A stretch of DNA of 64,000 nt, from NCBI GenBank assembly GCA_025812035.1, contig GCA_025812035.1_4719.1. One strand, written 5' to 3'. The notes beneath the pieces are model-generated. The model was not told the DNA's origin. It saw only the letters and a program-made list of their open reading frames with translations, and did no database searches. This stretch comes from a phage. The translations under genes and the position numbers were made by a program. Positions 10,290 to 59,800 of the stretch are shown piece by piece. Every line of letters begins with the position of its first letter. Within the stretch, counting starts at the first letter, position 1.

Positions 10290-10304
10290 TAGCCATTGAA
10301 TGGA

Positions 10305-10943
10305 TTAACCTAATTTACCACCGGCGATGTTGGTGAAATCTTCGCCGTCAGGAACTTGCAATAGAATACGTGCCATGTCCCAGTTGGTTAGTGTGATTGC
10401 TTTATCATCGATACTCAGTTCTGGTAGGTCGAGTTCATGATCGTCAAACTCGTAGGAAATACTCCACGTTTCATCTGTTTTAGGATCGGTTATCAGCACA
10501 CCGTCTGTTACACGCATGTAGTCCGGATGCAGCTCATTACTGAATGTGCTGAACGGATCGGTGTAACATTCAGCATACCCCTCGATCTGCTGACGCTGCG
10601 CCTTCGTACGTAAATCAGGGCACGCCATGATGAGTTGTCGGGATATGCCGTTTGCAGCTCGGAAATCCTCCACGGTGTTACATGGCATAACCACATCGTC
10701 GTGGAAGATGTTCTCCGATTGTCTCAGCAAAGTCTTACGGAGTTCAGCATAGTTTATCTGATTGAATGCGTCGAACGTTGCTAACGATTCAGCGTAAAAA
10801 TGCTTTACGTGTTCGCTTGCGCCGCCGAGACTATTCATCAACTTGTGACCGTACTCCATGAAACTTTTATCGAGACCGGAGGACATTTCTCCGAACCTCA
10901 GTGCACGATAACTGTCTCGTCCACCTGTAAATATTTGCGCCAT
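10305..10943 (-). CDS. hypothetical protein with RNAP beta C-terminal-like GGRxxYxxLRFGEM motif
   Basis: N-terminus MAQIFTGGRDSYRALRFGEMSSG resembles bacterial beta-subunit GGKAQFGGQRFGEME; own AAGGAGG Shine-Dalgarno 8 nt upstream; match is short and could be chance. Confidence 0.35.
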   Translation of the reverse strand: MAQIFTGGRDSYRALRFGEMSSGLDKSFMEYGHKLMNSLGGASEHVKHFYAESLATFDAFNQINYAELRKTLLRQSENIFHDDVVMPCNTVEDFRAANGISRQLIMACPDLRTKAQRQQIEGYAECYTDPFSTFSNELHPDYMRVTDGVLITDPKTDETWSISYEFDDHELDLPELSIDDKAITLTNWDMARILLQVPDGEDFTNIAGGKLG

Positions 10944-10958
10944 TACAGGCGTCCTCCT

Positions 10959-11198
10959 TTAGCAATGGTTGTTAGTTGCTTCTATTTCGTCAAGATAAGG
11001 TTCTACGTCATCGCCCTCCACGAATTCGTTGAACCAGCAGTCAATGGTAGAAATAACCGGTGACTGGTGTTCACATTTCTTAGATACCTTAAAAGGTACG
11101 TTATTATCCATCATACCGAGTTCGGGTCGAAAACGCCCGAAATGTTTCGCAGTCCAAATGTCTGGGACGATATGGTTGTTCATCGTGGTGTTCAGCAT
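10959..11198 (-). CDS. RNAP beta-prime-like segment downstream of the catalytic motif (putative 3' exon or separate polypeptide)
   Basis: Translation ...TTMNNHIVPDIW...ELGMMDNNVPF parallels E. coli beta-prime [29 protein letters not shown] that directly follows NADFDGD; in-frame stop 2 codons upstream of the annotated ATG. Confidence 0.4.
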   Translation of the reverse strand: MLNTTMNNHIVPDIWTAKHFGRFRPELGMMDNNVPFKVSKKCEHQSPVISTIDCWFNEFVEGDDVEPYLDEIEATNNHC

Positions 11199-11574
11199 GA
11201 GTCGCTACCTCATACCCGCAGCTTTACCTGCAGCTTCCGGTGTTACCGGAATGTCCAGAATACATCTTATCCATATTCCAAATGGAACGTAGGACTTCCG
11301 CGCTGGATCTCGCTTGAGACCACGTATTCGTTGAACCTGCGTTGTTTCACATTCTTGCAAACAAGAATGCCGTATTGCTACGCAACAACCAGGCTGCTGA
11401 TCGAACATTGTCATGTACGGTAGGCATCCCCGAAGGGACTGTCATTGAAGCCGCGTACATCCGCTACCTTGTTTCTACCTTATCGGTTCCTCTTACGAGG
11501 CGTAGCGGCCTTAGCCCTTCCCAGCAATTCACGGAATCCAAGCTCTTCCTTTCGGAAGGCAGGGCCTATGATTA
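11184..11574 (-). other. possible second intron or unexplained 390-nt spacer between the DGD micro-exon and the downstream beta-prime segment
   Basis: Contains GGTTCAACGAATACG (R-like) and AAGATGTATTC (S-like); ends ...ACG before ATGAACAACCAT; no convincing P1 pairing found by eye. Confidence 0.25.
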
Positions 11575-11587
11575 AGCGTCACCGTCG
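11575..11587 (-). other. candidate 13-nt micro-exon CGACGGTGACGCT completing NADF-DGDA
   Basis: Only GAYGGNGAY in the interrupted region; lies 20 nt after the endonuclease stop; joined to exon 1 at the proposed splice site it gives GAC TTC GAC GGT GAC GCT, restoring NADFDGD. Confidence 0.35.
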
Positions 11588-13028
11588 CTTACGTGCACCG
11601 ACGTTTATTAACTCATGGTTATCCACTGAAATACGGCGTTAGGGAAATAATCCTTCTTGCCGCGTTTTGAGATTTGCAATGCCATATTACTCGGAGACAA
11701 TCTGTAATGCCATGCTGCTTCATCGATAGAACTAAACTTCTTTGTTTCGCCGTTATCAAAGATGATTTTCAACGCTAGTTTAGGTAAATCGTCTTCCGTT
11801 TCTACTAGTTCGAAAGAATCGATATTCTCTGCCAGCGTTAACGGATCAACAGGTAATATCAGCCAACCAGCACGCTGCAATCCTCCACGTAGACTAATTT
11901 GTTTATTCAACGCAGGGGTAGCCATGCCAACTAACTTAGCAGCCAGCTTGCGGTCTTTAATATAAAGACGATAATCTCCGGTATTATTAATAGCATACAC
12001 ACCAAAGTTATTGAACGATACCTTTCCAGCATCGGAACTAGTAAAGCCTACAAAGTCGTGGCTGTCGGTAGCCACGTCGTATTTAAATGCTAATGGCTTG
12101 TTTCGACTGCCGCTAAGATACTTCTTGGCTGTAGATACCGATATGTTGAGATATCGTCCAATAGCATTCAAACTTTCTAGTTCGATGATTTCTCCTGTCA
12201 ATATGTCCTTTAACCGAACATTACCCATCGGTATTGGTGGTTTACCGACATAACCCAATTCACGATATGCGTGTTTCAAGTTATCTGAATCAGTAGCCCA
12301 TTCCAAATTTTCTAGTCTGTTATCCCAACGCACTCCATTAAGATGATTAGGGACACGACGGATTATACCTGACGTCGGATCTGGGTTAAATGTTTCAAGG
12401 ACGATCTGATGATGGTATTTCACTTTGTTGTTCCTAGTGAAAGCGCGATAGTTGTTTTTGCCCGACTTGGGTGGTTCAGTACGAAACAACACTGTCAGAC
12501 TAGACACATCTACTATCGTACCGTTCTTATTAACAACGATACCATCAAAACCATTAACAGGACGATAATCAGACAAACAATCTTCAGAAATTGCCTGTCC
12601 AACTAAAGGTTCACTCAATTTGACCTCCTTTATAAAAGAAGTCGGTGCACGTAATTATCGACTATATCTTCATCCTCGTTGCGAGGAGTCTCCCGTTTTG
12701 GTCTGTGTTTAACAGAGCCTACTCTACTCGACATCGCGTCTTTCGATAGTCTGTGAGCACACATCTTAACGAACATTCGTGGATTCCTAAGCAGGTGAAC
12801 GTTCTTGTTGAGATGCTTCGCTGCGGATTATTCCCGTCCTACCTCTTTTACCATACCCAGTTCATTACGCTGGCCCTCATCTGTGTCACCACGATGAGTT
12901 GGTGTGTAGTCCGATTACAGAAACTTCCCGTCAATTAGAGAGTTTTAACTACGTTCCTGTTACCAGAAACCCGACTCCGACGATATCAATTAAATCAACG
13001 TAAATTATTGATTTAATTGAAGAAACTG
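11588..13028 (-). mobile_element. putative group I intron carrying the HNH homing endonuclease ORF, inserted in the beta-prime catalytic motif
   Basis: Coding-strand elements upstream of the endonuclease ORF: CAGACTATCGAAAG (plus 12741-12753, R-like) and AAGATATAGTCG (plus 12659-12670, S-like); candidate guide sequence GAGTCGG (plus 12971-12977) pairs with exon end CCGACTT with a terminal U-G; proposed 5' splice after GACTT and 3' splice after GTAAG; boundaries are inferred. Confidence 0.5.
11608..12618 (-). CDS. HNH homing endonuclease (TTG start)
   Basis: HNH motif KYHHQIVLETFNPDP...NHLNGVRWDNRLENLEWAT plus C-terminal helix-turn-helix-like DNA-binding repeats; no in-frame ATG, starts at TTG with AAGGAGG 5-6 nt upstream; sits inside the interrupted beta-prime gene. 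Confidence 0.8.
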   Translation of the reverse strand: MSEPLVGQAISEDCLSDYRPVNGFDGIVVNKNGTIVDVSSLTVLFRTEPPKSGKNNYRAFTRNNKVKYHHQIVLETFNPDPTSGIIRRVPNHLNGVRWDNRLENLEWATDSDNLKHAYRELGYVGKPPIPMGNVRLKDILTGEIIELESLNAIGRYLNISVSTAKKYLSGSRNKPLAFKYDVATDSHDFVGFTSSDAGKVSFNNFGVYAINNTGDYRLYIKDRKLAAKLVGMATPALNKQISLRGGLQRAGWLILPVDPLTLAENIDSFELVETEDDLPKLALKIIFDNGETKKFSSIDEAAWHYRLSPSNMALQISKRGKKDYFPNAVFQWITMS

Positions 13029-14284
13029 AAGTCGGCATTATAACCTTTCAAGATCATCACGCTTAACCCGATGGTGTTATCCTGCGGATCGCGTTTAACC
13101 TTGGTGATTTCAAGACATTGGTTACTGCTTCGGTCAAGTGATGGATTTCGAACAAAACCACACACAATCCCATCAAACGGTGTATCAGCAATAAGCTCAT
13201 CGTGCAGCTCGCTCATCATCGGATGATAATTACGGACATGTTCCGCAACGAACGCACGTGCTGCTCTTGGTGAATAACCACGATGGAATAACTTGGATTG
13301 GATATGTTCTTTATTGGTTAATGTAAATGGCGCGTATGGGAAATGCAGATGATAATAACGATGGTTCGCTGTTATCGAACTGATTACGGTACGCGTGGTG
13401 AATGGATGTAATGTACCTAATATGTTTTTACGTGTGATACCTTTCTTCTTACCGATGAACTCATCGAAAATCGCCGAGTGGTACTGCAGCAGCTTCAGTT
13501 GTACTTTCGCCATCCAGTTTTCTTTCTTTCTGGCGCTCAAAGGTGTTGTTGGGTGATAGATACTATTCAATGTACCGATAGCATCGATCGCACCTTCCAT
13601 TTTGCTATCTGCATAACGACCGGTTGGTGTATTCTCGATAACGAACATCATGGCGGCAGGAAAACTGATATACTGGCTGAAGAACTTATCGCGATGAATG
13701 CGGGTGAATTCTCGTAGCGTATCAACTTTCTCCGTGTTCTTCGGTCCGCGTAACGTAGGTCCTTTATACAAGATCTCCATGATGCGATCGAAGTTCTGTA
13801 TAAAGCTATTTATCCCACGTCGTATCCCGAATACATCGAATTGCTGCTCCAGATAGTTCTTGAGTTCGATGGGTCGTTTTACGTTTGGACGGTAACTGGC
13901 ATCAATGAGCCACGTCATCGTTTCAAAGCTTTTGATATTCAACTCGCTTGCCAGCACGAGATGGACCAACGGGTTAATAAACGCATCAATTCCTTCAGGA
14001 ACACGCGCCCAAACCGTCGAACGAATCTCTTGTTCTGCTGGGTAGGTTACAACCGTTTTACAGTTTGGACACACCGTGCCAAGCAGCTCACCACGATTGT
14101 AGAAACCACATCCACATTGTGGTGTGATATCCAACGTATCGCTGGAGTAAACACGGGTGATAAAACTGTTTAATTTCTTCTTCTCTTCGACGACTTTTGT
14201 GTCGTAATCATTCAACAAAATAGGCGTAAAAGGAAGTTCTGCGAGCTGTCTATCGAAACTCACGATATCGAGCATGATGGCCAT
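13013..14284 (-). CDS. multisubunit RNA polymerase beta-prime N-terminal portion (exon 1), ORF runs into intron
   Basis: Zinc ribbon CGCGFYNRGELLGTVCPNCKTVV (compare E. coli [23 protein letters not shown]); GKKKGITRKNILGTLHPFTTRTVISS (compare [23 protein letters not shown]); frame ends GYNADF-SFFN-stop, i.e. inside NADFDGD. Confidence 0.75.
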   Translation of the reverse strand: MAIMLDIVSFDRQLAELPFTPILLNDYDTKVVEEKKKLNSFITRVYSSDTLDITPQCGCGFYNRGELLGTVCPNCKTVVTYPAEQEIRSTVWARVPEGIDAFINPLVHLVLASELNIKSFETMTWLIDASYRPNVKRPIELKNYLEQQFDVFGIRRGINSFIQNFDRIMEILYKGPTLRGPKNTEKVDTLREFTRIHRDKFFSQYISFPAAMMFVIENTPTGRYADSKMEGAIDAIGTLNSIYHPTTPLSARKKENWMAKVQLKLLQYHSAIFDEFIGKKKGITRKNILGTLHPFTTRTVISSITANHRYYHLHFPYAPFTLTNKEHIQSKLFHRGYSPRAARAFVAEHVRNYHPMMSELHDELIADTPFDGIVCGFVRNPSLDRSSNQCLEITKVKRDPQDNTIGLSVMILKGYNADFSFFN

Positions 14285-14326
14285 GGGGTATCTCCTACAA
14301 ATGAAAAAGAACGTTAGGACGTATAA

Positions 14327-14350
14327 GGGAGGGAGGTTGCCCTCCCTCCC
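14327..14350 (-). terminator. terminator-like hairpin after the 631-aa gene
   Basis: GGGAGGGAGG-TTGC-CCTCCCTCCC perfect 10-bp stem. Confidence 0.5.
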
Positions 14351-14376
14351 GTCAGATTACATCGAACGTTCTTCCA

Positions 14377-16272
14377 TTAGAACAGGTTGAATGCCCCACC
14401 CATGTTGTTACCACCAACGTTCGGACGATCGCTGCGTGCGTAGATGCTACCGGAGATATTACCCAGACCACGAGCACGTGCTGCCATGTTACCACGAACA
14501 GCGGTACCCGCCAGATGCTGGATATTCTCAGGACGGATGGTGAAGCCAGCTTCAGCAGCTGCTTCAATCAACGCAGCAAGCGCTTGCGGTTCGAAGTCGT
14601 AACGCATTGCCCAACCGGTTTGTTCCCAGCTACCAGACAGAACACGATCGATGATTTCGTGACGAGCGACAACACGCTGAGACATCGACATATCGGTACG
14701 GTCGAAGCTGTCTTCCCATGCTTCTACGGTATCCGGGTTAGTGATGTTCATCATGTACAGATCGTCCATATCGCGAATATCGTGACGGTTACCATCCTGG
14801 TGGTTGTAGTGACCCAGCGGGATACGGTTACCGGTAGCGTAGACCAGCGGTTGACCGTATTGATATTTCTTGCTGAAGCAGCCCAGGGTAGTATCATCGA
14901 AGGCACGGAAGAGTGCTTTGTAACCTTCAGAGACTTCCCGAACATCAGCCTCAACATTACCCGTATAGATCTTCTCAGCCGCCGGGATCATACGCAACAG
15001 CCAGCTGTATTCGCCTTCTTCCGGCACGTCGATAGAAATCAGCAGGGACGGATACAGTACCTGTTGCAGGAACTTGTAAATCTGCTCATTGGTTTGAGTA
15101 GACAGATCCAGCGGTGCGGTAACTTCCGGATCCAGCACCATCGCCAGAGCACCCGGGTTATGCGGACCGATACCACGAGCAGCGTTGCTGATTAAAGACT
15201 GCGCCCATGCCATGCCGCTGTTCAGCGTAGCAATGGTACCAATCAGACCCAATACAAAAGTATTCGGTGTGAATGCGTCCAGCTCCAGCGGGTAAGCGCT
15301 GGTCATCACGTAACGCGGCTGGTATTGTACAGTCGGCGGTACCGGATAACCGTTAACCAGAACAGGACCTTGGTTGAAGGTCGGGTTCTGCGGGCTGTAG
15401 GTCAGGTCGATATAGCCGGTAGTTGCGACCAGACGCTGCTGGCTATCGTAATCGCTCATCGCTTGACGGATGCGGTTAGAGATAGTTACAGTGATGTCGG
15501 AACGCACTGGGTTACCAACGATATCGCTGTCCTGCATACCGCTGGTGTTATACTGAACGCTGCTGATCGGCTGATCGCTTGCCATCATGCCCAGGTTGAA
15601 CTGCGGCAGGCCCAGTTTATCACCGAGACGGATTTCGATTGCGGTTTGGATTGCGTTATCTGCAGCAGACAGCAGGGTGGTTGCCAGGTGTGCAGATTCA
15701 GCGGTGATTTCATTGGTCACCACAGCCAGACCAGCGATACGAACAGTACCATTAGCCTTGCCACCAATAGCCGCATACATTGCCGCCATGACTTCGTTGA
15801 TGAACGTGCCGTTCAGGTTATCAACCCAGGTACGCGGTACCAGAATGTTACCATGCGGACCTTGTTCTTCACGACGCGGCAGCGGAGCCAAACCGGCAAC
15901 CAGCGGAAGCACATAACCGAAGAAGTGGTTATGATCACCAACTTTCGCACCACTCATAACCACCAGGGTCGGATACGGTACACTGTACTGACCAGGATCG
16001 ACAGTCACCATGATGAAGTCGTCTTTAAAGCCTTTATCTTCCAGTTCTTTTTCCATCAGACGACGGAGGTTCAGTACTTGCTCAGAACCGGTGTTACGGC
16101 TAATACGACGACTCAGTGTACGGTTGATCGTACGCATCGTATGAGTCACTTTAGGCTGGCCAGCAAAGTCTGCAGCGGTTTCCAGCGCTTCATCTGCACG
16201 TTGTGCGGTGCGGGTTTCAGCTGCACGAATTTCTACATTATCGTTACCGTTTTTACGTACGTCTAAGCCCAT
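14377..16272 (-). CDS. candidate phage-nucleus shell protein (chimallin-like), otherwise abundant early protein
   Basis: 631-aa monocistronic unit between TATATTACC box (16345-16353) and terminator hairpin (14327-14350), adjacent to the zinc-ribbon beta-prime gene as chimallin is in phiKZ; length is close to described chimallins as I recall them; no sequence-level confirmation. Confidence 0.4.
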   Translation of the reverse strand: MGLDVRKNGNDNVEIRAAETRTAQRADEALETAADFAGQPKVTHTMRTINRTLSRRISRNTGSEQVLNLRRLMEKELEDKGFKDDFIMVTVDPGQYSVPYPTLVVMSGAKVGDHNHFFGYVLPLVAGLAPLPRREEQGPHGNILVPRTWVDNLNGTFINEVMAAMYAAIGGKANGTVRIAGLAVVTNEITAESAHLATTLLSAADNAIQTAIEIRLGDKLGLPQFNLGMMASDQPISSVQYNTSGMQDSDIVGNPVRSDITVTISNRIRQAMSDYDSQQRLVATTGYIDLTYSPQNPTFNQGPVLVNGYPVPPTVQYQPRYVMTSAYPLELDAFTPNTFVLGLIGTIATLNSGMAWAQSLISNAARGIGPHNPGALAMVLDPEVTAPLDLSTQTNEQIYKFLQQVLYPSLLISIDVPEEGEYSWLLRMIPAAEKIYTGNVEADVREVSEGYKALFRAFDDTTLGCFSKKYQYGQPLVYATGNRIPLGHYNHQDGNRHDIRDMDDLYMMNITNPDTVEAWEDSFDRTDMSMSQRVVARHEIIDRVLSGSWEQTGWAMRYDFEPQALAALIEAAAEAGFTIRPENIQHLAGTAVRGNMAARARGLGNISGSIYARSDRPNVGGNNMGGAFNLF

Positions 16273-56824: not shown

Positions 56825-59800
56825 ATGGTAGATAAAACCCGTGTTGAGGGTGATGATAATTGGGACAACTGGGATGAAGACTTCTCCCTGGATCTCGATT
56901 TTAACGAGCCTAAAGACGATCGTAAACCAATAACACGCTTTGCGATAGGAGCGGTTAAAGGTGCTGCTGAGGATCTTACTTCCTACGAAAGAATGAAGGA
57001 GATCGCCAGAAACGCATTGCCTAAGGGCTATAGCGACGGTATGGATCTTATCGATTCCGCCGTCGGATCCACGAAGGAACTATACAATGAAGCCGTTCGT
57101 GATGTTCTTCCTAAGGTCCAAAGCTCAAAACGGTTAGCAGCACAACTAACCAAGAAATATCGTGCAAGCATGCCCGATTTCTCGAAGAAAATTATCGAGC
57201 GTTGGGAGCAAGAAGCCAAAGAAGAAGACGAACGTAAACAGGCTGAAGCAGAACTCAAGCAACGCATGGCGAACGCGGGAGATGATGAAATCGCCCGTAA
57301 GGTTGCCGAAGCGTTAGGCGAGTCAGCAAACCAAAGCGCGGATCAGTTTGCCGAACAGCAAGCAAAAGAAAGTATCCGTGACGATATTGCCGACAAACGG
57401 TACGCTGTAACCAACAAACAAATGAGTGCGATGCAAGAAGGCGTCGCCAAGATGGTTGGTTTCAACAACGAATTCGCTGCACGCTACATGCGTAAAAGCC
57501 TGGAACTGAAATATCGTTCCTTAGCGATTCAACGTGCAAGTTTTGATCAGCATAAAAAGTTAGCCGAAGTCTATATCGGTTTATTACAAAACATCCAGAA
57601 GAACACGGCTTTACCTGATGCAGCTAAAGCGAAAATGTCGGAAGAATTCCGTCGTAGTGCATACCAACGTTTCTTTGGTAATGCGTTAGATGCGATGAGT
57701 TCTTTCGAGAGCCGTTTCTTTGCCGATGTTAAGAAAAACCTTGCCACCAACGCATTAGGTGCTTTAAAAGGCGTCGTGTCTGGAGCAAACGATGCGTTAT
57801 ACGGTTTAAACGAAGCGCGTGACTCGATGTCCATGATGGATGGGATGGGGTCAGAAGGCGATATTAAGGAAATGCAAGGAAAGATGTTGGGTCAGTTTAT
57901 TGGCTCAACTGTTGCACCATGGATGGCTAATAAAGGCATGATGGCATTACGCGATTTAGCAAAACGTCATCCCAATGCTAAATTCGCAAGTGCGTTAAAA
58001 GCCGTGGATCAAGGTGGTGAGGCCGCCGCCTACACAACGCGTAATATCGGTAAACTGCTCCAGGAAGATATTCGTAAAAACGAATTCAATCTTAACGATC
58101 CGTTTTACAAGCAGTTGTTACGTGGTGCAGGGCGTTGGGCGTTCAACATGGACAGTGGACGTAACTTCCGTGTGATGAACGACACCGCTGAAACACTGGC
58201 GGAGCAAACGTCATTCGATGGTTTGACTTACCGCAGCATCAATGAGGTTATTCCTGGTTTTCTTGCTCGCATTCTGAAAAGCAGTGAAGGCATCCGCACG
58301 GGAAACAGTGATCCCGACTACGAGGTCTATGACGGCATCAGCGGGCAATTCGTGGCTCAGCGCACGCGCGAACAAAGCGTCAACGACACACTGTTTAACA
58401 AACGTTCGTTTGGTTATTACGCGAGTCGTTTCAATGAGGTCATCTCGGTCATCGATCCCGATAAACAGTTATCGGAAAAAGCCAGGAAGGCATTGGCTAA
58501 ACAGCTGGCACGAGACAGTGACGCAAACATCGCATTCGACCCAGCTCGTTTTACGGATGAAAGTAACTTCGATCGCAGTATCGACCGTGACGCTATTAAG
58601 GAACTTTCCACGTACTTCCGTGACCGTTACGGTATTCGCGATCATGTCGATGATAAGGGCGAACGTCAGCAAGTCATTGAAAACCGCGGGCAATATTACA
58701 CGGAACGTAACCGAGCGGATCTTCGTTACGGTAATCTGAAATCCTTACAGCCGGATATCCAGCGTAACCTTAACCTACTGAAACGTACTGGCGACGTCCA
58801 ATATCTGGAACGTATCGGTATCGTAACAAGAAATAGTGACGGTAGCTACTCGGTTAACCACGATCGGTATTTCTCTGAAATCGATCAATACATCGATCGA
58901 CCAGAGTACGCTGACCGCGGCGATGTCAGTACGCGATTAACCGATCAGGAAACAAGAGCGCTGGCGCTGGGTTATCGTGACGCAAAACCATCAACTGGCG
59001 ACGTCCAAAATTCTGGTCTGCCGAACATCGATCGTAAGGCTGCTGGAACAGTAACCGTTGATGAAAACATCGGTTACGATAAATGGTGGAATGACGCAGG
59101 TGTTATCACCACATCGCTTGAAGAACAGAATCGAGCATGGCAAGAGCTTTATCTCGAAGCGCTGTCTGAAGCATCCGAACAACGTGTTGAGATGCTTGCG
59201 TTACTGAAAGCCATTTCTGAGAAAGACTGGTCTAATAACGTTTCGCTGGATGGCGAAGACGTACCTGAAGGTACAGCACCCATTTCGTTTATCGATCGCG
59301 CTAAACAAAAACTCGGTACACACAACCTCTTTAAACGTGGTCGTAATCTCCTCTGGAAAGGAATTAAAAATACCGCACGGTTGGGTGTTAAAGGTGCGCG
59401 TTGGGGTGCAGAACGCACGTTGGGTAGTTTGGTAAATTCTGGCCGACGTATTATCAACTTCAACCGCTTCGTGTTCGGCGCATTATCCAAGGTTGATCAG
59501 GTTCCATTCGACATTTACGTTAAAGGGGAATCCCAACCGCGTATATTGGCAGCCAAGCTTCGTCAGGGGTTATACTTCGACGAAGCTACGGGAAAAGCCG
59601 TAAAACGGATGAAGGATATCAAAGGCCCACTCGTTGATGCAGATGGAAACATCGTAATCAGCAACGAGGATATCGAGAAAGGGCTGGTCACTCGCGCCGG
59701 TCGTGCTTTTGAGAATTCGGGACTTAAAGCGTGGGCGCGTGAAGGCCTTAATGGGATAACAACGGTATTAAGTCTACCACGGATGTTAAAACGCGGTGCG

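Follow-up and report, generated by a model that had tools for sequence, protein, structure and literature searches.

In a 64,000-nucleotide (nt) stretch of phage DNA (contig GCA_025812035.1_4719.1 of GenBank assembly GCA_025812035.1; hereafter the window), positions 10300-14400 share 98.1% identity with Escherichia phage vB_EcoM_Goslar, the Escherichia coli model of the nucleus-forming jumbo phages. The features of interest are all on the minus strand, directly downstream of the gene for chimallin, the nuclear shell protein (16272..14377). Judged by homology, the gene in question is that of the β'-N subunit of the non-virion multisubunit RNA polymerase (nvRNAP), the homologue of phiKZ gp55. 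The Goslar record lists here, in order, a 423-amino-acid (aa) 'RNA polymerase beta subunit', a non-coding RNA named 'Intron_gpI', an HNH endonuclease, and a 79-aa hypothetical protein. Since the record carries Intron_gpI, the depositors had already noticed the first of the introns described below. The public Goslar annotation holds no spliced gene model, and its 'RNA polymerase beta subunit' fragment is devoid of the catalytic aspartates. An earlier note, made from the letters of the window only, offered two readings of this locus; each sequence element that it named was found again at the position given there. The first of them, that two group I introns flank a 13-nt micro-exon encoding the catalytic Asp-Gly-Asp (DGD) within one β'-N gene, is in our judgment very probable. 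It is supported by guide pairing, by the homology of intron 2, by synonymous variation of the micro-exon, and by a colinear protein.

Four Goslar-like genomes were compared, namely the window, Goslar (L001), L007 (a Goslar-like metagenomic contig, Logan SRR5130533_29614), and L017 (IMGVR_UViG_3300045988_173921). A distant chimallivirus, L014 (ENA ERZ27249479 k141_82391), shares 31% aa identity. The parts of the gene, each with what it is based on, are as follows; ORF stands for open reading frame, and P0002, P0003, and 7OGP_A are homologues introduced below.

13029..14284, minus strand: exon 1 of nvRNAP β'-N (ORF list; colinear tblastn and hidden Markov model (HMM) matches; P1 pairing with the guide)
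11588..13028, minus strand: intron 1, group I, 1441 nt (RF00028; Goslar Intron_gpI; ORF-less alleles of L007 and L017; P1 covariation)
11575..11587, minus strand: micro-exon, 13 nt, CGACGGTGACGCT (frame; synonymous-only variation; omega-G of intron 1 and U at the 5' splice site of intron 2)
11184..11574, minus strand: intron 2, group I, 391 nt, no ORF (nhmmer; covariance model R1; fold; covariation)
10959..11183, minus strand: exon 3, 74 codons to the stop (frame; colinearity with P0002, P0003, and 7OGP_A)

The zinc-ribbon β' ORF of the earlier note (14284..13013, minus strand; 423 aa) terminates as described there, in GYNADF-SFFN-stop. Exon 1 ends ...AAT GCC GAC TT, within the Phe codon of the NADFDGD motif. 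The micro-exon supplies the third base of that codon, followed by Asp-Gly-Asp-Ala, and exon 3 starts with ATG AAC AAC CAT (MNNHIVPD...). Joining 14284..13029, 11587..11575, and 11183..10959 yields 1494 nt in frame and a 497-aa protein that reads GYNADFDGDAMNNHIVP. The predicted mRNA junctions are ...AATGCCGACTT/CGACGGTGACGCT/ATGAACAACC (here and below a slash within a sequence marks a splice site), corresponding to ...LKGYNADFDGDAMNNHIVPD... in the protein (...GYNADF-DGDA-MNNHIVP...) and to the predicted tryptic peptide GYNADFDGDAMNNHIVPDIWTAK; the intron-less form of the site is AATGCCGACTTCGACGGTGACGCTATGAAC. Skipping of the micro-exon would produce the junction GACTT/ATGAAC, which is out of frame. 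The annotated 79-aa ORF (11198..10959; Goslar gp185), which the earlier note had also listed, starts 15 nt too early, within intron 2, and the remainder of it is colinear with homologues.

The spliced protein behaves as one polypeptide in every comparison. More than 100 chimallivirus phage genes align over the junction peptide in one piece in tblastn searches. The closest intronless relatives, P0002 (GYNADFDGDAMNHH; 65% identity) and P0003 (AYNADFDGDEMNNHIPPD; 62% identity), are colinear with it, which answers the comparison with intron-less homologues suggested in the earlier note. Phrog_2987 is matched in one stretch (positions 1-474 of 478), and PDB 7OGP_A aligns colinearly (residues 21-476 with 41-495, E 1.7e-74); chain A of 7OGP was deposited under PHIKZ055 and PHIKZ056.1 jointly, as the spliced phiKZ subunit. 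The unspliced 423-aa ORF has no Pfam match, PF00623 included, while the spliced protein matches PF00623 with 36.8 bits at residues 371-428, across the junctions. The metal-binding motif NADFDGD is complete only after both splices.

The pattern GAYGGNGAY occurs once in 11184-13030, compared with about 0.13 occurrences expected on one strand of 1.85 kb (derived from a window-wide shuffle mean of 9.33), in agreement with the earlier claim that GAC-GGT-GAC is unique in the region. Together with the exon 1 part of NADFDGD, the micro-exon encodes the three aspartates that hold the catalytic magnesium. Its positions 1-6 pair with the guide of intron 1 and its positions 11-13 with the guide of intron 2, with no overlap. 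The micro-exon is identical in the window, Goslar, and L017. In L007 it is CGACGGGGATGCT, with two third-codon changes (GGT to GGG and GAC to GAT) at positions 7 and 10, between the two guide-pairing segments. Such synonymous-only variation is the pattern expected of a translated D-G-D-A segment, and supports the prediction that this one is translated.

These observations bear on the possibility that a single long intervening sequence extends from 13028 to 11184, in which case GACGGTGAC would be a chance match and the gene would either give a product without DGD or be a decaying pseudogene. Rfam does detect one intron core only in the interval. Joining exon 1 straight to exon 3, however, gives 1481 nt, which is out of frame, and the polymerase would lose its metal-binding aspartates. 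The synonymous-only substitutions in the micro-exon and the 99% conservation of exon 1 as protein in relatives also speak against it, as do the ORF-less alleles described below, which put the end of intron 1 just before CGACGG. In addition, tblastn against Goslar found no second copy of the subunit; it reported two places, of which only the first is listed, and these fit the two ends of the split query. We regard a single long intron as extremely improbable.

Intron 1 is matched by RF00028 at 13019..12642 over the full model (1-253), with 47.8 bits (E 1.8e-10; gathering score 50). The R-like and S-like elements of the earlier note are the J6/7-P7 and J8/7-P7' segments of this match. The guide region reads 5'-AU CGUCG GAGUCGG-3'. 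Its segment GAGUCGG (12977..12971) pairs with the exon end CCGACUU (13035..13029) to form a P1 of 7 base pairs (bp) with a terminal U-G, precisely as the earlier note had proposed for GAGTCGG. The adjoining segment on the 5' side of the P1 guide strand, (U)CGUCG (12983..12978), is positioned to form P10 with the micro-exon start CGACG(G). The P1 loop contains an extra AU-rich hairpin (13020..12986), and P1 is followed by a P2 helix with a GUAA loop (12970..12953). In L007 the exon end is CAGAUUU and the guide is GGAUCUG. The two double compensatory changes relative to the window indicate that the P1 pairing is under selection. In the window, intron 1 ends ...GUAAG/CGACGG, the last G being the omega-G (11588). 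In L007 and L017, intron 1 has no ORF (47.0 bits against RF00028 in L007) and ends AUAGUCGAUAACAG/CGACGG (...AACAG/CGACGG), which places the 3' splice site directly before the micro-exon.

The group I elements assigned to intron 2 are the following.

11577..11564, minus strand: P1, GCU/UA-AUCA-UAGGC
11558..11545, minus strand: P2
11536..11521, minus strand: 5' strands of P3 and P4
11400..11395, minus strand: 3' strand of P4
11392..11337, minus strand: P6 hairpin, window-specific
11329..11324, minus strand: 5' strand of P7, GAAUAC
11321..11306, minus strand: P7.1
11302..11292, minus strand: 3' strand of P3
11286..11270, minus strand: P8
11263..11258, minus strand: 3' strand of P7, GUAUUC
11251..11235, minus strand: P9
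11233..11216, minus strand: P9.1
11215..11195, minus strand: P9.2
11184, minus strand: omega-G, at the end of the tail UGAACACCACG
P10: UCAU with AUGA of exon 3

The same gene carries Rfam-positive group I introns in the phiKZ-like phage T2P (80.4 bits) and in Xanthomonas phage LucasX (54.7 bits). From P3 to its final nucleotide, intron 2 can be seen to be homologous to the T2P intron. The two share AAUUGCUGGG, AUCAGCAGC, and GGUUCAACGA, as well as a GUAGCGA-type P9.2 loop and a UGAACAyyACG tail. When the T2P intron alone is used in an nhmmer search of the 64-kb window, it matches 11404..11183 (E 5.8e-6), ending exactly on the proposed 3' splice site. Conversely, a covariance model (R1) made from the 3' domain of intron 2 only was searched against 50 kb of other loci. 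It matches intron A of L007, described below (43.5 bits, E 2.8e-10), and the T2P intron (41 bits, E 1.3e-9), both full-length and each to its omega-G. The resulting alignment, which is fitted to the model and thereby flatters structure, has 93.8% paired cells, and compensatory changes occur in 16 of 37 pairs. In a helix-by-helix alignment of P3, P4, and P7 from eight family members, extracted by hand from sequence anchors, 94.1% of cells are paired and 10 of 19 pairs are changed on both sides, a result reached by none of 500 shuffles. Sliding the partners lowers the pairing to 34-55%. Taken together, these comparisons show covariation in P3, P7, and P9. The G-C and A-U pairs that open P7 are invariant, and the third P7 pair is found in all four Watson-Crick types among the eight members. 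The unconstrained minimum-free-energy fold of the micro-exon with intron 2 (z -4.58) recovers P1, P2, P3, P4, P6, P7.1, P9, P9.1, and P9.2. The recovered P1 (GCU/UA with UAGGC) has 5 bp, with a U-G at the splice site. Two other models were set aside. A profile HMM of seven family 3' halves aligned with MAFFT (A1) detected intron 2 less well (E 0.013) than the T2P sequence did on its own, owing to misalignment of the variable hairpins. In the MAFFT alignment of the non-Goslar introns (A3), loop shifts of 1 nt disrupted the helices, so that a covariance model from these introns was given up and R1 was built the other way round, from intron 2. On these comparisons, intron 2 is clearly predicted to be a group I intron and, by its sequence as well as its structure, a homologue of the phiKZ-type intron that Rfam validates in this gene.

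Between the window and Goslar, intron 2 shows one large difference only, a clean swap of P6, with the core untouched and the rest about 99% identical. The P6 hairpin is 56 nt long in the window (11337-11392), compared with about 20 nt (GAAGCUCCGUUCAGGAGAAC) in Goslar, L007, and L017, where it resembles the P6 of the phiKZ-type intron. One pair in the P5 region exists in three states over the four Goslar-like genomes (G-U, A-U, and A/C).

Several points weigh against two spliced introns. The Rfam group I scan proposed in the earlier note retrieves intron 1, 2.2 bits under the gathering score, and, over 2.6 kb searched with a limit as permissive as E<=10, gives no RF00028 match to intron 2. Judged by Rfam only, the second intron would thus have been dismissed. 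Rfam misses it because P7 is GAAUAC with GUAUUC rather than GACUAU with AUAGUC, which amounts to two compensatory double changes in the most conserved segments of the model. P7 varies elsewhere in the family, too (GAGCAU with GUGCUC in L014; GAUCGU with AUGAUC in L012), and the L012 intron is likewise Rfam-negative. P1 of intron 2 includes three exon base pairs only and its P10 four only, and helices this short are weak evidence on their own. The hand extraction of the one alignment and the model fit of the other belong here as well. Splicing of the Goslar-like alleles, with both ribozymes acting in vivo, is a prediction from sequence. Lastly, under the conditions of a long-read study of phiKZ, the intron predicted in gp56 was not seen to be spliced (PMC10914365); the solved phiKZ polymerase nonetheless contains the joined polypeptide (7OGP_A).

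The lack of an Rfam match to intron 2 would also be expected if only intron 1 were spliced, as in the second reading of the earlier note. Translation would then stop at the UAA after DGDA, intron 2 would be a dead remnant, and the 79-aa ORF (MLNTTMNNH...) would be translated alone and assemble non-covalently. A UAA does lie directly 3' of the micro-exon, the ATG of the 79-aa ORF has a GAGG 9 nt upstream, and gp185 is a separate gene in the Goslar annotation. Furthermore, jumbo phages already have split RNAP genes, for which fission driven by introns has been suggested (PMC7598289). However, in-frame stops just within an intron are expected, and the supposed ribosome-binding site (RBS) and start codon, GAGG and ATG, correspond to the opposite strands of P9.2, a conserved hairpin whose counterpart in the phiKZ-type intron has no ATG at this place. 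The ribozyme core of intron 2 is intact, with P3, P7, P9, and P9.2 kept by compensatory changes, and its omega-G and P10 are located exactly where the frame resumes. Each intronless homologue is a single polypeptide through this point. A promoter and terminator scan found nothing above shuffle expectation in favor of separate transcription units. A fission after DGD is therefore disfavored, and we consider it quite unlikely.

If both introns are spliced, the guide of intron 1 would pair with the exon 1 end CCGACUU to form P1, with the U-G at the cleavage site 13029/13028. Exogenous guanosine would attack this 5' site, after which P10 pairing with the guide would bring the micro-exon start CGACG(G) into line. 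Exchange of the omega-G (11588) would follow, and exon 1 would be joined to the micro-exon. Intron 2 would take the same route with its short P1 (GCU/UA with UAGGC), its P10 (UCAU with AUGA), and its omega-G at 11184. The predicted product is the 1494-nt mRNA and the 497-aa protein ...GYNADF-DGDA-MNNHIVP....

Intron 1 of the window bears an endonuclease cassette.

11608..12618, minus strand: HNH homing-endonuclease ORF, 336 aa, TTG start (Pfam; phrog_59)
11589..11610, minus strand: 3' arm of an inverted repeat, core GUCGGUGCACGUAA, then the omega-G directly
12633..12654, minus strand: 5' arm of the inverted repeat, core UUACGUGCACCGAC

The ORF, with its TTG start and its RBS AAGGAGG (12630..12624), had been recorded in the earlier note. 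Its product exceeds the Pfam cut-offs for HNH_3 (31.1 bits; cut-off 24.8) and NUMOD1 (24.0 bits; cut-off 22.8), has a weak I-HmuI NUMOD-like match under the cut-off (16.9 bits), and matches the phrog_59 HNH endonuclease (E 2.9e-23). A PDB sequence search with the 336-aa protein gave no match at E<=0.01. It is 25-30% identical to HNH ORFs of introns at neighboring sites in other chimalliviruses; the HNH proteins of introns in the chimallivirus nvRNAP motif are distant relatives of one another (25-47% mutual identity). The inverted repeat around the ORF (22 nt, 86% complementary) closes the ORF-bearing loop. In L007 and L017, the dinucleotide CA takes the place of the 1066-nt cassette 12654..11589, which in the window separates GAUAA from the final G. 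The ORF-less alleles and the repeat place the endonuclease ORF in a 3' peripheral loop of intron 1. The HNH/NUMOD1 gene has its own RBS, and the enzyme presumably nicks or cuts the intron-less alleles of co-infecting relatives, which would drive homing and possibly interference competition.

The 5' arm of the repeat holds a second, exact copy of the 5' splice site, CCGACUU(C) = CCGACUUC, at 12645..12638 on the minus strand, upstream of the endonuclease RBS. By chance, intron 1 would contain a copy on this strand with a probability of about 0.03. The copy could be a cryptic or internal guide target or a relic of cassette acquisition.

The ORF-less intron 1 stops 8 nt past the 3' strand of P7 (AUAGUC GAUAACAG/; 2206-2213 in L007 and 780-773, minus strand, in L017). 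It has no P9 helix at all and, should it splice alone, would be a group I intron of unusually reduced form. Because there is no P9, it may need intron 2, or pairing between the introns, for folding or for the choice of the 3' site. An 11-nt perfect complement exists between a hairpin in the P5 region of intron 1 (12887-12897; UCAUCGUGGUG) and the 3' junction of intron 2 (11180-11190; CACCACG/AUGA). Its occurrence is near chance expectation for a 2-kb region, and it is kept in L007 and L017 with one G-U pair. It is the candidate inter-intron pairing if the stacked introns form a functionally coupled unit rather than being independent parasites. Were they coupled, the order of splicing, or inclusion versus skipping of the 13-nt exon, would gate the production of active nvRNAP, and the internal splice-site copy would act as a processing or decoy site. 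We think such coupling unlikely.

The arrangement belongs to a hotspot. In chimallivirus nvRNAP genes, the approximately 40 nt that encode LKAPNADFDGDxM contain about nine distinct insertion points, with up to three introns per allele.

LKA/P: LucasX
GG(G/U)U/AU, in the Tyr codon (the second slash marks the splice site): intron A of L007 and L017
N/A: phiKZ-type
A/D: first intron of L014
D/F: L010
UU/C, in the Phe codon: intron 1 of the window
G/D: L009, L012, L011, and the second intron of L014
D/x: L013
A/M: intron 2 of the window

Among 78 homologue clusters, many predicted proteins end inside the motif, at differing points. L007 (1467-2590) and L017 (2700-300, minus strand) have a three-intron allele, consisting of intron A, the ORF-less intron 1, and intron 2, with two consecutive 13-nt micro-exons, ATAATGCAGATTT and CGACGGKGAYGCT; the second corresponds to CGACGG(G/T)GA(T/C)GCT. 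These two genomes, which have intron A, lack the endonuclease and also show synonymous changes in the exon that flanks intron A. In L014 (3719-4443), two introns of 54.8 and 68.3 bits, both over the Rfam gathering score, flank a 12-nt micro-exon, GATTTCGACGGT (APNA/DFDG/DALNYS). This micro-exon is of independent origin, and micro-exons of 12-13 nt have thus arisen at least twice. A hidden micro-exon in L009 was considered and rejected, because the third Asp codon opens the downstream exon (UUG/GAU GCA), indicating a single intron. A degenerate DNA pattern for the intron-less Goslar-type allele found no match in viral contigs. An IS605 OrfB/TnpB-like gene is located about 1 kb downstream in L014 (5519-6245).

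The nearest known system is the phiKZ gp55/gp56 intron, which T2P and other phiKZ-like phages have. It lies in the same catalytic motif of the same gene, belongs to the same intron family as intron 2, and contains an HNH endonuclease or what is left of one; the polypeptide obtained by splicing is present as a subunit in 7OGP_A, the solved polymerase. Passages of PMC10914365 and PMC11512511 cite introns in phiKZ gp56, gp72, and gp179 as predicted since 2002. In contrast to the window, the phiKZ-type gene has one intron, at AAT/GCG (N/ADFDGD), 8 nt upstream of intron 1 and 21 nt upstream of intron 2 of the window, and no micro-exon; its P7 fits the consensus and it is hence detectable with Rfam. 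Another chimallivirus RNAP gene, the virion RNAP β gene of PhiPA3, is interrupted like that of the window at conserved aspartates of the catalytic region by a group I intron encoding an HNH protein, gp210, which nicks the intron-less allele of a co-infecting relative, phiKZ (PMC11620839). That case differs in polymerase (virion), subunit (β), and site, and involves a single intron.

Two group I introns flank a very short exon also in Twort orf142 (introns 2 and 3), the phiNIT1 rNDP reductase gene, and Coxiella 23S rRNA. The length reported for that exon is 23 nt for Twort and 34 nt for Coxiella, while that of phiNIT1 is described as 'a small exon' (PMC10136302, PMC11878797). In both the window and the Twort type, the short exon provides the P10 partner of the upstream intron and the P1 partner of the downstream intron. 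The exon of the window (13 nt; 12 nt in L014) is shorter than the phage and bacterial cases found. Unlike the Twort type, it carries a catalytic triad and its skipping shifts the frame, and the three-intron alleles have two short exons back to back. The earlier note had called the architecture unusual. This is right only in part: group I introns at the motif are common in chimalliviruses, and short exons have precedent. Mitochondrial mini-exons between group I or II introns of fungi and protists, of fewer than about four codons, similarly lie in highly conserved coding stretches. Those below four codons are common and are routinely missed by automatic annotation (PMC10352661). These cases are organellar and often maturase-dependent, whereas the window is that of a lytic phage with phage-type introns related to the T4 td intron. 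In the literature searched, we found no description of the second intron of Goslar-type phages, the 13-nt catalytic micro-exon, the three-intron alleles, the density of insertions, or NADFDGD in connection with such an intron. No new mechanism is called for; the arrangement is an extreme case of tandem phage group I introns in an active-site motif.

The predicted correct product in Goslar is then a protein of 497 aa from three exons, one of them 13 nt long, and this model is needed for expressing, knocking down, or modeling the Goslar nvRNAP. The locus offers a natural system for studying the competition of homing endonucleases and group I ribozymes with minimal exons. It also bears on whether the uncoupling of transcription and translation in the phage nucleus eases the accumulation of introns.

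Across the whole window, ARAGORN predicts no tRNA and no tmRNA genes, Rfam gives no match at gathering thresholds, and intron 1 provides the only group I intron signal at E<=0.01. At permissive thresholds, Rfam returns intron 1 and one other feature, a match to the ribosomal S15 leader (RF00114) at 57556-57661 on the plus strand. Its score, 29.9 bits (E 0.0056), is below the gathering score of 39.5, and it is probably a chance match.

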